From NCBI RefSeq assembly GCF_057098645.1, contig NZ_CM169472.1: DNA of 64,000 nucleotides; one strand, written 5' to 3'. The translations under genes and the position numbers were made by a program. Positions 17,797 through 42,156 of this stretch are shown here, piece after piece. The notes under the pieces were generated by a model. That model worked only from the letters and a program-made list of their open reading frames with translations, was not told where the DNA came from and did not search any database. Positions within the stretch are counted from its first letter, which is position 1, and each line of letters starts with the position of its first letter.

Positions 17797-17850
17797 TGAA
17801 CCGCCCCGGGAATCCTGGAGACTAAACTTCCTGAGAAAGAGGTAAACAGG

Positions 17851-18177
17851 ATGACTAAAAATACTCGTTTTTCCCCTGAAGTCCGTCAACGGGCAGTCCG
17901 TATGGTTCTGGAAAGTCAGGGCGAATATGACTCACAATGGGCGACAATTTGTTCCATTGCTCCAAAGATTGGCTGTACGCCGGAGACTCTGCGTGTCTGG
18001 GTTCGCCAGCATGAGCGGGATACCGGGGGCGGTGATGGAGGGCTCACCACCGCTGAACGTCAGCGTCTGAAAGAGCTGGAGCGTGAAAATCGTGAACTGC
18101 GCCGCAGTAACGATATCCTTCGCCAGGCTTCCGCTTATTTTGCGAAGGCGGAGTTCGACCGCCTCTGGAAAAAATGA
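17851..18177 (+). CDS. IS629 OrfA (transposase N-terminal part, HTH)
   Basis: 108 aa [50 protein letters not shown]... Confidence 0.9.
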
Positions 18178-19064
18178 TGCCACTGCTGGATAAGCTGCGT
18201 GAGCAGTACGGGGTCGGACCGCTATGCAGCGAACTGCATATTGCCCCGTCAACGTATTACCACTGTCAGCAACAGCGACATCATCCGGATAAACGCAGTG
18301 CCCGTGCGCAGCGCGATGACTGGCTGAAGAAAGAGATACAGCGCGTATACGATGAAAATCACAAGGTATACGGTGTGCGTAAAGTCTGGCGTCAGTTGTT
18401 ACGGGAAGGTATCAGAGTGGCCAGATGCACTGTGGCACGTCTCATGGCGGTTATGGGACTTGCCGGTGTTCTCCGGGGTAAAAAGGTCCGTACGACCATC
18501 AGCCGGAAAGCCGTTGCCGCAGGCGACCGCGTAAACCGTCAGTTCGTGGCAGAACGACCTGACCAGCTGTGGGTGGCTGATTTTACTTACGTCAGCACAT
18601 GGCAGGGCTTCGTCTATGTGGCGTTCATCATTGATGTGTTTGCCGGATACATTGTGGGGTGGCGGGTCTCATCGTCCATGGAGACGACATTCGTGCTGGA
18701 TGCACTGGAGCAGGCGTTATGGGCCCGTCGACCGTCCGGCACGGTCCATCACAGTGATAAAGGTTCTCAGTATGTATCGCTGGCCTACACACAGCGGCTT
18801 AAGGAAGCCGGATTACTGGCATCAACAGGAAGTACAGGCGACTCGTATGACAACGCGATGGCGGAGAGCATCAATGGTCTTTACAAAGCGGAGGTAATAC
18901 ACCGTAAGAGCTGGAAAAACCGTGCAGAAGTGGAACTGGCCACACTCACGTGGGTGGACTGGTATAACAATCGACGATTGCTGGAAAGGCTGGGCCATAC
19001 TCCTCCGGCAGAAGCAGAAAAAGCTTATTATGCTTCCATCGGAAACGATGATCTGGCAGCCTGA
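18174..19064 (+). CDS. IS629 OrfB (DDE transposase catalytic part)
   Basis: 296 aa with DDE motif context (...WVADFTYV..., ...HHSDKGSQY..., ...[15 protein letters not shown]...). Confidence 0.9.
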
Positions 19065-19106
19065 GTTCACAGATAAAACACTCTCCAGGAAACCCGGGGC
19101 GGTTCA

Positions 19107-20391
19107 TTTTTTCCTGACGCTTGCCGAGTCCGGAGAACGAAAAACCGCAGTGGACAAATTATTAATGAAGCCCCTGTACCAGCAGGAGATGCAGTTATAT
19201 TCCAGATACAAAAGTGAACTGGCTGTCTGGAAAAACAAGGAAGAGCTTTTAAAGGCTCAGAAAAAAGCATTGTTGTCAAAACTGAATAAAGAACTCCGCA
19301 AAGGCGCGGATGAGTCAGAAACCCTCAGACAACTGGAAGTACTTCAGAAAAACAGTGCGGAAGAACCTGTGAGGTATAAATTCATTTTTAATGATGCCAC
19401 GACTGCGGCAATTAAGAATCAGCTTTGTGGTAAATGGCGTTCAGTGGGTATTATGTCAGATGAAGCCGGTATTATATTTGATGGATATACCCTGTCTGAG
19501 TTGCCTTTTATTAACAAAATGTGGGATGGCTCTGTATTGTCTGTGGACAGAAAGAATGAACCCGAACAGATGATTGAAAATGCCAGAATGACGTTATCCC
19601 TCATGGTGCAACCAGGTCTTTTTGACCGATATATGGAGCGAAAAGGTTCTGTTGCCAGGGACAGTGGTTTTCTTGCCCGTTGTCTTATCAGTAAACCTGC
19701 AACCACGCAGGGGAAACGCTTTATTAACGGAGCTGTGATTCCGGGAGGATCATTAACGGCATTTCATGAACGATTAATGGAACTGGCCAGAGGCAGTATT
19801 GAAAAATCCAGTGAGGATGAACGGTATTGTCTGCATTTTTCGCCTGAAGCGCAAAAAATATTTATTGAGCACTATAATGTTCTGGAGCAGGATTTATCCC
19901 CTTCCGGACCCTTAAGCCCGTTTCGGGGACATGTTTCAAAAAAAACAGAAAACATTGCAAGAATTGCAGCGTTATTTCAGTATTTCAGCTATGGTGAAGG
20001 GAAAATCTCTGCCGATATCATGACGTCTGCTGTCGTAATAAGTTCGTGGTACACAGATGAATATAAAAAATTATTTGCGTTACCTGATGAATCTGAACTG
20101 CAGCAGAAGGACGCCGAGGAGCTGTTCGACTGGCTCATTGAGGAGTGCCGCGGAGAATGCCCGCCCCGTGTCAGGAAAAATTATATTCTCCAGTGTGGCC
20201 CGGGCTGGTTCAGAAACAGGAAAAAACTGAACGCATTGCTGAACATTCTTGAATCTCAGTTCAGGCTTTCTGTCGTGCCGGAAGGAAAAACCATGTATGT
20301 TCTGCTTCCCCAGATAGCCAGTTTAAAGTTGTCTGATGTCTCTGGTATTTTTACCTCGGGTTATCACTACAATAAGCTGAGAGCGAAGTAA
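19107..20391 (+). pseudogene. Hypothetical island protein, 5'-truncated by IS629 (possibly DUF3987-like)
   Basis: ORF 18922-20391 begins inside IS629 in another frame; the part outside the IS (about 428 aa, ...KFIFNDATTAAIKNQLCGKWRSVGIMSDEAGIIFDGYTLSEL...) has no in-window start codon. Confidence 0.45.
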
Positions 20392-20451
20392 CCGGTGAGC
20401 AGTTTTTCTCCATTATGCTTCAGACTTAGATGATTGATTATTATGGGGATT

Positions 20452-20489
20452 TCATCACCGATATTCAGATGTATGAATATCGGTGATGA
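20452..20489. terminator. Perfect 16 bp inverted repeat between convergent genes (bidirectional terminator candidate)
   Basis: tcatcaccgatattca-gatgta-tgaatatcggtgatga. Confidence 0.4.
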
Positions 20490-39830: not shown

Positions 39831-40441
39831 AGCTGGCGAATATCATCGGTCATCACGCGGGTATTGATGACAATACAGCGGCAAAAGCCATTGCCCATGC
39901 CATTCTCGGTGGTGTGACAGCAGCCCTTCAGGGCAACAGTGCGGCAGCAGGCGCAATTGGTGCGGGTACTGGTGAAGTGATCTCGTCAGCCATTGCGAAA
40001 AGCCTCTACCCGGACGTAGATCCGTCGAAACTGACAGAAGATCAGAAGCAAACCGTAAGCACGCTGGCAACGCTGTCAGCGGGTATGGCTGGCGGCATTG
40101 CCAGTGGCGATGTGGCTGGCACAGCTGCAGGGGCTGGTGTTGGGAAGAACATTGCTGAGAATAACTTGGTTGGTGGCACAGAGTCCGAGCAGAGCAAAGC
40201 TGCTCAGACGCATGGCGCAGATGTACTTTCCTGTAACGATGCTCCAGGCGGTGAAGCCTGTAAGCGAGGAGAAGCAGTCAATAAAGCGTATGCCGGAGCG
40301 TTGGCCACTGGTAGTGTAGCTCTCTTACCTGGCGGTGCTCAGGCCATGTGGGCTCTTGGCACAGGTGCAAATGCAGGAATTGGTTACATGGTAGATAGTT
40401 CAGTTGATCCTGAAAATGCAATCATTGCAGGATGGGTCTGA
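39831..40441 (+). other. Polymorphic-toxin-like fragment in frame with the truncated tnpC: Gly/Ala-rich pretoxin region with ENN motif (KNIAENN) plus about 90 aa glycine-zipper-like C-terminal piece; stop supplied by the IS629 terminal TGA
   Basis: ...SLYPDVDPSKLTEDQKQTVSTLATLSAGMAGGIASGDVAGTAAGAGVGKNIAENNLVGG... resembles CdiA pretoxin (PT-VENN) regions; the ORF ends exactly at the IS629 boundary (40439-40441). Confidence 0.45.
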
Positions 40442-40480
40442 ACCGCCCCGGGTTTCCTGGAGAGTGTTTTATCTGTGAAC

Positions 40481-41371
40481 TCAGGCTGCCAGATCATCGT
40501 TTCCGATGGAAGCATAATAAGCTTTTTCTGCTTCTGCCGGAGGAGTATGGCCCAGCCTTTCCAGCAATCGTCGATTGTTATACCAGTCCACCCACGTGAG
40601 TGTGGCCAGTTCCACTTCTGCACGGTTTTTCCAGCTCTTACGGTGTATTACCTCCGCTTTGTAAAGACCATTGATGCTCTCCGCCATCGCGTTGTCATAC
40701 GAGTCGCCTGTACTTCCTGTTGATGCCAGTAATCCGGCTTCCTTAAGCCGCTGTGTGTAGGCCAGCGATACATACTGAGAACCTTTATCACTGTGATGGA
40801 CCGTGCCGGACGGTCGACGGGCCCATAACGCCTGCTCCAGTGCATCCAGCACGAATGTCGTCTCCATGGACGATGAGACCCGCCACCCCACAATGTATCC
40901 GGCAAACACATCAATGATGAACGCCACATAGACGAAGCCCTGCCATGTGCTGACGTAAGTAAAATCAGCCACCCACAGCTGGTCAGGTCGTTCTGCCACG
41001 AACTGACGGTTTACGCGGTCGCCTGCGGCAACGGCTTTCCGGCTGATGGTCGTACGGACCTTTTTACCCCGGAGAACACCGGCAAGTCCCATAACCGCCA
41101 TGAGACGTGCCACAGTGCATCTGGCCACTCTGATACCTTCCCGTAACAACTGACGCCAGACTTTACGCACACCGTATACCTTGTGATTTTCATCGTATAC
41201 GCGCTGTATCTCTTTCTTCAGCCAGTCATCGCGCTGCGCACGGGCACTGCGTTTATCCGGATGATGTCGCTGTTGCTGACAGTGGTAATACGTTGACGGG
41301 GCAATATGCAGTTCGCTGCATAGCGGTCCGACCCCGTACTGCTCACGCAGCTTATCCAGCAGTGGCATCAT
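40481..41371 (-). CDS. IS629 OrfB
   Basis: Identical 296 aa translation to 18174-19064. Confidence 0.9.
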
Positions 41372-41694
41372 TTTTTCCAGAGGCGGTCGAACTCCGCCTT
41401 CGCAAAATAAGCGGAAGCCTGGCGAAGGATATCGTTACTGCGGCGCAGTTCACGATTTTCACGCTCCAGCTCTTTCAGACGCTGACGTTCAGCGGTGGTG
41501 AGCCCTCCATCACCGCCCCCGGTATCCCGCTCATGCTGGCGAACCCAGACACGCAGAGTCTCCGGCGTACAGCCAATCTTTGGAGCAATGGAACAAATTG
41601 TCGCCCATTGTGAGTCATATTCGCCCTGACTTTCCAGAACCATACGGACTGCCCGTTGACGGACTTCAGGGGAAAAACGAGTATTTTTAGTCAT
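41368..41694 (-). CDS. IS629 OrfA
   Basis: Identical 108 aa translation to 17851-18177. Confidence 0.9.
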
Positions 41695-41745
41695 CCTGTT
41701 TACCTCTTTCTCAGGAAGTTTAGTCTCCAGGATTCCCGGGGCGGT

Positions 41746-42156
41746 TCAATCAGTGTTTACTTCCCTGGCCTCGCTACCATTGGTATAGCTACTACAGTCT
41801 TCATCACTGCCACGCTCATTCTCACAGACATGTTTCTCGACCTTTCCAAGATATCTGACGCCTTTTCGCGGAATGGTTTTAATTAGAGAACTCGACAAAC
41901 CAGCGATGTCTAATGCCTTTCTAAGCATGTAAATCTGCCCATAATAACTGCTGTCGCTTACCGAACCTTTCTGCTCCCGCCAAACCTCATTGATAATATG
42001 TTGCTTATCGGATTCTCCCTGTAGTAAAAGGAGTAAAAATCGATAGCCGTTTTCAGACAGATTAATTACATTGCCTGTACTGGTGGTGATACGTCGAGAC
42101 GCTGGGTAAAACTTAACTCCCTGCCCTAAAGAAAAATAAAAACGGTCATCGCTCAT
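41746..42156 (-). pseudogene. ToxR/CadC-like winged-helix (OmpR/PhoB-type) transcriptional regulator, N-terminal 136 aa; 3' end truncated by IS629
   Basis: ...NGYRFLLLLLQGESDKQHIINEVWREQKGSVSDSSYYGQIYMLRKALD...IKTIPRKGVRYLG... winged-helix pattern; the stop codon is the IS629 terminal TGA. Confidence 0.55.

Follow-up and report, generated by a model that had tools for sequence, protein, structure and literature searches.

The 64,000-nucleotide (nt) stretch analyzed here, referred to as the window (contig NZ_CM169472.1 of RefSeq assembly GCF_057098645.1), covers the tRNA-Phe (pheV) island of an Escherichia coli O145:H28-like strain, that is, of enterohaemorrhagic E. coli (EHEC). Within the island, two copies of the insertion sequence (IS) IS629 bracket 21.3 kb. 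Probably this bracket is the scar of a rearrangement that took place in situ, through deletions adjacent to IS629 and an inversion between the two IS copies, and not a unit that moves or a switch that evolved as such. Comparison with related genomes directly shows the joints, the DNA missing at them and the reversed orientation of the bracketed segment. In what follows, flanks a and b lie to the left and right of copy 1, and flanks c and d to the left and right of copy 2.

A repeat search finds a single long repeat in the window, one inverted pair at 17795–19106 and 40439–41750 that is 1312 nt long, 100% complementary and separated by 21,332 nt, which agrees with a sequence-only reading of this DNA that had described two identical, inverted IS629 copies bracketing 21.3 kb. 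IS629 proper spans 1,310 bp, from TGAACCGCCCCGGG to CCCGGGGCGGTTCA, with imperfect terminal inverted repeats at its left end (IRL) and its right end (IRR); the two extra bases of the repeat are an ‘AT’ common to the DNA beyond the IRL of each copy, a coincidence with a chance of 1/16. Across the 1,310 bp, the element is 100% identical to one that the phage record LC567824.1 labels ‘insertion sequence: IS3 family IS629’. Both OrfA and OrfB match the IS3-family transposase model NF033516, and each copy contains a full-length ALIL frameshift pseudoknot (RF01497, 120 bits). Judged from these matches, the element is IS629 of the IS3 family, with orfA and orfB, a predicted programmed −1 frameshift and a predicted DDE transposase.

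Each flank keeps its own IS end through any recombination inside the IS copies, and we therefore recorded which end adjoins which flank. Flank a meets IRL, b meets IRR, c meets IRR and d meets IRL; the outer flanks thus adjoin IRL and the inner flanks IRR. Copy 1 lies between CCACCAT and TTTTTTCC, and copy 2 between GATGGGTC and ATCAGTG. Three pairings of the flanks were analyzed for a target duplication of 3–4 bp: simple insertion (a with b, c with d), insertion of a composite unit (a with d), and insertion followed by inversion (a with the reverse complement of c, d with that of b). No duplication is present under any of them. The simple-insertion pairs read CAT and TTT at copy 1 and GTC and ATC at copy 2, the same flanks and the same lack of a duplication that had been read from the letters before; the composite pair reads CAT versus ATC (or CCAT versus ATCA), and the post-inversion pairs read CAT versus GAC and ATC versus AAA. 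The test is valid because control copies of IS629 in RM9872, DLI.6n and SW070919 have clean 3-bp duplications (TTC, AAG and CAC), and an IS21-family element inside the bracket has a 6-bp one (GGCATG). These results show that the two copies sit at rearrangement joints, and they leave the identity of the element as IS629 unaffected.

To reconstruct the ancestral order, we compared the window with three unrelated genomes in which the island is contiguous: A1, DLI.6n (where it lies at pheU) and SW070919. The intact island consists of fec, a small open reading frame (ORF), an IS3 remnant, a restriction-endonuclease fragment, cdiI, cdiA-CT', an IS66/cdiA chimera, tnpB, tnpA, a LysR gene, the 3-hydroxybenzoate/gentisate (mhb) genes, yfjI, a GTPase gene and Ag43. 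The fec side of the window stops at A1 position 34510, and the interior of the bracket corresponds to A1 12001–30687 in the opposite orientation relative to fec. The 3,822 bp of A1 30688–34509 are missing at the fec-side joint. At the glcA-side joint, everything distal of yfjI nt 200 is gone (the GTPase gene, Ag43 and the rest of the distal island), together with, in comparison with RM9872, a further 4,620 bp (L003 22726–27345, breakpoint at L003 27346). This last loss covers genes for the Flp pilin, a prepilin (A24) peptidase, CpaB and a secretin, as well as two small ORFs, and ends inside a regulator gene. When the interior is flipped back, the order becomes fec...34510, IS, 30687...12001, IS, regulator'. 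This order matches the ancestor except for two deletions, and an IS629 marks each of them. The sequence-only reading had proposed IS629-mediated deletion and/or inversion in place of simple insertions, to be checked against the ancestral order in related genomes. In A1, DLI.6n and SW070919 the segment is contiguous and opposite relative to fec, and comparison with them shows both the inversion and the losses at the outer joints, in support of that proposal; neither copy is a simple insertion. The Flp/Tad-type pilus cluster between the island and glcA, wholly gone from the window strain, has been eroded to varying extents by IS629 in relatives.

The uninterrupted versions of the four flanks were located in RM9872 and A1. 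At flank a, RM9872 reads CCACCAT/TATATTCG (the slash marks the position of the joint) and continues through the pseudogene of which the window keeps only the tail. At flank b, A1 reads CTCTCTTTTTTTCCTGACG, with an intact yfjI at 11801–13285. At flank c, A1 reads GGATGGGTC/AATGTAATC. At flank d, RM9872 reads GTGTGC/ATCAGTG, with an intact regulator gene and the Flp/Tad locus before it; in the window, the stop codon of this gene is supplied by the end of the IS. All four flanking genes had been called truncated from the sequence, and the truncations are confirmed, with the correction that the IS3-family pseudogene at flank a and the chimeric ORF at flank c were already remnants before IS629 arrived. 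The ORF at flank c, labelled ‘IS66 family transposase TnpC’ (window 38834–40438; A1, L001 29083–31077), is itself a chimera: its IS66 DDE domain ends at profile position 221 of 387 and is followed in frame by a PT-VENN domain (CdiA pre-toxin). From this domain order, the IS66 element sits in a cdiA remnant upstream of cdiA-CT'/cdiI.

We next asked where else the configuration occurs. Searches with each IS copy extended by 700 bp into both of its flanks, at a coverage of at least 80%, detected a+IS+b or c+IS+d in 0 of 5,426 complete E. coli genomes. Matches of about 74% to ‘flank + IS629’ in SW070919, DLI.6n, M15 and several O145 genomes were rejected as non-contiguous pieces merged by the search; in these genomes IS629 is placed elsewhere, at yfjI nt ~462, at nt ~930 of the chimeric tnpC, in cdiA-CT', or at a site 1.34 kb rightward from a. 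The joints are found in draft assemblies. Junction a is represented by contigs with the FecD T161 variant that end in ACCCACCAT/TGAACCGCCCCGGGAATCC (drafts L031, L032 and L035), and junction c by 12 contigs on which the truncated chimeric ORF ends in GGATGGGTC/TGAACCGCCCCGGGTTTCC (drafts L018 and L020 among them). Junction b appears as a fusion ORF of the IS with yfjI' on an 18,840-bp contig of GCA_048063055.1, a length equal to the full interior minus the IS21-family element. The exact 136-amino-acid regulator of junction d is encoded on at least 24 contigs (30 collection blocks), with tails reading CACTGAT/TGAACCGCCCCGGGAATCC, the latter being the IRL of IS629; in the drafts with this junction, the right flank is identical to the window across 10.25 kb. 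Junctions a and d occur together in GCA_029361185.1, and a and b in GCA_048063055.1. Because all four recur in independent draft assemblies, the joints are genuine and have been inherited within one lineage. Relatives in which the same flanks surround a simple insertion, the observation that the sequence-only reading had named as contradicting it, were not seen: no complete genome has any of the joints, and the joints in the drafts likewise lack duplications.

The lineage is further marked by substitutions that are private with respect to all compared genomes, seven in the interior (window 24693–37250) and two in the fec region (9303 and 15581). One of these substitutions produces FecD P161T and can be used as a lineage marker. 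The density of private substitutions is alike in the interior (7 per 12.5 kb) and in the flanks (2 per 10.8 kb and 1 per 3.8 kb), giving no sign of recent import. In GCA_048063055.1 (L032), the island with junctions a and b follows another island module (DUF4942, ParD/ParE) and does not directly follow yqgA and tRNA-Phe, which indicates a tandem island arrangement in that genome. We also looked for the partner of junction b, the 5' part of yfjI joined to IS629, by exact protein look-up; the 67–69-amino-acid products retrieved come from genes cut off where contigs end, in many unrelated strains, and not from IS junctions, and were discarded. In many unrelated draft assemblies (L021–L030), contigs end at yfjI nt 204–205, inside the T run of junction b (A1, L001 12000–12006). 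Homology between paralogous island modules may stop here, or the site may be fragile or a hotspot.

Relatives show other outcomes of IS629 activity at this locus. In RM9872, one IS629 is a simple insertion with a TTC duplication, and another, in inverted orientation, is accompanied by a 387-bp deletion that spans cdiI/cdiA-CT'. In Z1323HEC0399 there is one IS629, deleted on its IRL side into the secretin gene, and in UTME-3 the fec island is wholly absent. C325 has no IS at the joint (L013 ~7285–7290). Its island side is connected there to the Tad side through the hexamer TGAACC, equal to the first 6 nt of IS629, with an ACC microhomology, and it lacks nine nt, ATGCGCACC, that are present in RM9872 and RM13516. 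By its sequence, the C325 joint reads as an excision scar of IS629. Excision dependent on the IS-excision enhancer (IEE) is reported to delete DNA next to the IS, over lengths of a few nt up to more than 40 kb, and to use microhomology (PMC9943667). A short IS remnant with microhomology is seen in C325; in the window both IS copies are retained, and excision of the element does not apply. An ORF of RM9872, ‘hyp843’, was considered as a gene of the Tad locus and then as a cdiA-CT' of the A1 type; alignment with C325 shows that only its last 57 nt before cdiI are common to the cdiA-CT' of A1 and that the rest belongs to the Tad side.

In the O145:H28 strains RM13516 (a Belgian outbreak strain) and RM12761, the mhb segment is likewise found at pheV, inverted as in the window, with fec on one side and the Flp/Tad locus on the other. 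Their locus differs from the window: the left joint has no IS and connects window position 17552 to 21141; a single IS629(+) lies at window position 37250 with IRR toward the Tad side, where copy 2 of the window has IRL; and the Tad locus is intact. We considered whether RM13516 descends directly from the window arrangement. Its left joint fits a 3.6-kb deletion that removed IS629, but its right IS629 has the opposite orientation, and recombination alone leads from neither arrangement to the other. RM13516 is therefore probably an independent inversion, and is evidence that inversion driven by IS629 recurs in this island, not evidence of shared ancestry. The Tad-side flank ATGCGCACCGATGAC adjoins the IRL of IS629(−) in RM9872 (L003 21416–22725) and the IRR of IS629(+) in RM13516 (L002 30294–31603), and this copy in RM9872 has IRL-type bases (AATCC) at its IRR terminus. 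The switch suggests that the near-identical 14-nt IS termini recombined with each other or that one site was hit repeatedly. In the equivalent of window 26196–26564, RM13516 (L002) carries about 35 substitutions confined to a Gp2-family gene, which looks like a gene-conversion patch from the paralogous pheU module. Its fec region has 16 differences, possibly derived from a second fec copy in the leuX island (L008).

In RM13514, 95-3192 and Z1323HEC0399, the mhb segment is located at the pheU/cadC locus and not at pheV. There it is fused through IS629 to a truncated efa1; in Z1323HEC0399 it is joined directly to an IS630 remnant. Many further O145 genomes have the segment far from pheV, and pheU/cadC appears to be the commoner location in O145:H28. 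RM13516, by comparison, has at pheU an intact efa1 followed by a paralogous yfjJ-Gp2-yfjI module. In O145, OI-122 is at pheU, and IS629 is the most prevalent IS in O145:H28 (Cooper et al., PMC3893438).

We infer the order of events and the enzymes involved as follows. Two mutually inverted copies of IS629 would first have been present in the island. Adjacent DNA would then have been lost at each copy, giving a/IS/c'...b'/IS/d, still collinear with the ancestor, and a single homologous exchange between the 1,310-bp inverted copies would have flipped the 21.3 kb to give a/IS/b...c/IS/d. The IS21-family element would have inserted afterwards. Two IS copies with adjacent deletions followed by one recombination make the simplest history, because the window with its interior flipped back is collinear with the ancestor. 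The final step resembles the homologous inversions between inverted IS copies described in E. coli and Shigella, in that the segment between the perfect 1.3-kb inverted repeats runs against the ancestral gene order. It differs in that the reciprocal duplications (a matching the reverse complement of c, d that of b) are missing and only one orientation is observed; the missing duplications require deletions beyond the IS–IS inversion. These deletions could have arisen as a by-product of IS3-family copy-out-paste-in transposition, by IEE-assisted excision, or by a second nearby insertion and IS–IS recombination. Loss of DNA beside the element is documented for IS629. [quoted passage not shown] The contiguity of fec and mhb in the three unrelated genomes, the retention of mhb at pheV in RM13516 and the similar density of private substitutions in the interior and the flanks support the in-situ history.

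Several observations weigh against this history. No genome with the collinear two-IS intermediate was found. The other assemblies with these junctions are short-read drafts that break at IS629, so that the interior orientation is read from the window alone. In most complete O145:H28 genomes mhb appears to lie at pheU/cadC and not at pheV, which makes exchange between islands a live alternative. The RM13516 arrangement, with its opposite right IS629, is not derivable from that of the window by recombination alone. Finally, no iee was noted among the window ORFs and annotations examined, which included no dedicated iee search, and a role for IEE is only plausible.

Exchange between islands would bring the 21.3 kb from the pheU/cadC island into an IS629(+)...IS629(−) pair already present at pheV, after which IS-adjacent deletions would have trimmed the outer flanks. 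The transfer could have proceeded by double crossover, by gene conversion, or by two large inversions through IS629 homology. The typical O145:H28 pheV island, represented by RM9872, already contains such a pair with IRL outward as in the window, and the outer joints of the window can be derived from it by nested IRL-adjacent deletions of 1.34 kb and 4.6 kb, for which Z1323HEC0399 represents an intermediate. In RM13514, 95-3192 and Z1323HEC0399, moreover, the pheU segment adjoins efa1' and has the chromosomal orientation seen in the window. The inner joints do not fit. The pheU copies keep yfjI intact, and in them the chimeric tnpC breaks off sooner, after 959 or 1368 nt where the window has 1605 nt, and is joined to IRL, not IRR; joints b and c are therefore not derivable from the pheU copies by recombination. 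Retention of the segment at pheV does exist in the serotype, as RM13516 has it there with an intact efa1 at pheU, and fec and mhb are contiguous in the three reference islands. We consider the exchange unlikely, and the in-situ inversion the more probable of the two.

Two identical IS copies around a catabolic operon also call to mind composite transposons of the Tn10/Tn5 type, in which two inverted copies of one IS enclose passenger genes and which would here have carried both IS629 copies and the gentisate operon into the island as one unit. We judge this extremely improbable: the outer ends lack a duplication, both are IRL where an IRL/IRR pair would be needed, the passenger is native to the island, with the left flank coming from the same ancestral island and 3.8 kb of that island missing between them, and the unit is at no locus in the complete genomes. 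An error of assembly is another alternative: the orientation of the interior or the linkage of the junctions could have been assigned arbitrarily at 1.3-kb repeats, the true genome being collinear or mixed. Reads over single junctions fit both orientations, and all other assemblies with the junctions break at IS629. The window, on the other hand, is contiguous across two IS629 copies and the IS21-family element, suggesting long-read or finished sequence, and RM13516 and RM12761 have the segment fixed in the window orientation at pheV without the left-hand IS. We regard an artefact as quite improbable; the deletions and the missing duplications would stand even if the orientation were wrong.

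The segment could in principle flip again through RecA-dependent recombination, and the sequence-only reading had called it potentially invertible again, because the two IS629 copies are still identical and intact. No assembly with the opposite orientation was found; the drafts with the junctions break at IS629. We doubt the stronger proposals that the 21.3 kb flips recurrently in a RecA-dependent manner, with both orientations present in populations, or that it is a vehicle by which IS629 homology moves the 3-hydroxybenzoate/gentisate operon between pheV and pheU; were either true, genes beside the outward-facing IS ends could change. The annotations of collinear relatives place no recombinase gene inside the bracketed segment, and the repeats are whole IS copies, so that a dedicated invertase is not apparent and the bracket does not look like a site-specific invertible switch. 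GC (guanine-cytosine) skew was uninformative in this mosaic island.

Coordinates of the flanks, the two IS629 copies and other features of the island in the window
Feature	Position	Strand	Basis or detail
tRNA-Phe (pheV), attachment site of the island	6585–6660	+	ARAGORN; yqgA–tRNA-Phe–integrase context in O145:H28 relatives
Island tyrosine integrase	6858–8120	+	Position transferred from RM9872 (L003 = window + 309), where the annotation is tyrosine-type recombinase/integrase
fecIRABCDE, ferric-citrate uptake, proximal island	9280–16825	+	ORFs; annotation of relatives
Flank a: last 74 nt (3' end) of a degenerate IS3-family pseudogene, adjoining IRL of copy 1	17723–17796	−	Comparison with RM9872
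IS629 copy 1	17797–19106	+	orfA 17851–18177, orfB 18174–19064, ALIL pseudoknot 18132–18248
Flank b: yfjI minus its first 200 nt, adjoining IRR of copy 1 within a run of seven T	19107–20391	+	Comparison with A1
IS21-family element, istA/istB	22054–24686	+	NF033546 and NF038214; 6-bp duplication GGCATG at 22048–22053 and 24687–24692
3-hydroxybenzoate/gentisate cluster (3-hydroxybenzoate 6-monooxygenase, maiA, FAH-family hydrolase, gtdA, mhbT)	30885–36896	−	ORFs; annotation of collinear relatives
Divergent LysR regulator, within the span of the cluster	35988–36896	+	ORFs; annotation of collinear relatives
Flank c: chimeric IS66-transposase/CdiA (PT-VENN) ORF minus its last 390 nt, adjoining IRR of copy 2	38834–40438	+	Comparison with A1; domain matches
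IS629 copy 2	40439–41748	−	ALIL pseudoknot 41297–41413
Flank d: winged-helix regulator gene, 136 of 201 codons kept, joined to IRL of copy 2	41749–42156	−	Comparison with RM9872
glcA, chromosomal backbone to the right of the island	43537–45219	−	ORFs; annotation of relatives

The window reads yqgA, tRNA-Phe, integrase, a degenerate IS1, fecIRABCDE, the bracket, and glcA with the glc operon. Both flanks of the bracket are 99.9–100% identical to O145:H28 genomes; the fec region is approximately 100% identical to O145 genomes, with three mismatches to RM9872 in 10.85 kb. Inside the bracket, yfjI' is followed by a module of helix-turn-helix (HTH), Hha, Gp2 and zinc-ribbon genes, the 3-hydroxybenzoate/gentisate cluster with mhbT and the LysR gene, an ISEc60 remnant, the IS66 genes tnpA and tnpB, and the chimeric IS66/CdiA ORF. 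The IS21-family element lies in the HTH–Hha intergenic region. None of the complete genomes compared has it, nor does GCA_048063055.1 (L019), a draft of the same lineage; as this draft has an IS629 joint without the IS21-family element, the latter is a simple insertion younger than the IS629 joints. Between the end of the LysR gene and the ISEc60 remnant, a match to RF02003 (group II intron domains D1–D4, 69.9 bits, window 36993–37128, plus strand) is probably an intron fragment; the IS629 insertion point of RM13516 lies about 120 bp to its right.

Events of this kind are well known for IS629 in EHEC, and the bracket is a lineage-specific product of them, not a new kind of system. It shares with the IS629 structural polymorphisms of EHEC a 100% identical element, the same host group, joints without duplications, kilobase-sized flanking deletions and, in relatives, microhomology scars. 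It differs from them in its particular combination of fec and mhb at pheV, seen in none of the complete E. coli genomes searched and not described in the O145 and IS629 literature that we searched. The pair opens no new mechanistic question, and its value is practical and descriptive. It shows IS629 eroding and reshuffling the tRNA-Phe island in an EHEC lineage that has lost the Flp/Tad pilus locus, the Ag43 module and part of the contact-dependent inhibition (CDI) immunity region and has kept the genes for fec and gentisate. As markers specific to the lineage, the four junctions occur in dozens of public drafts, and could serve for subtyping.

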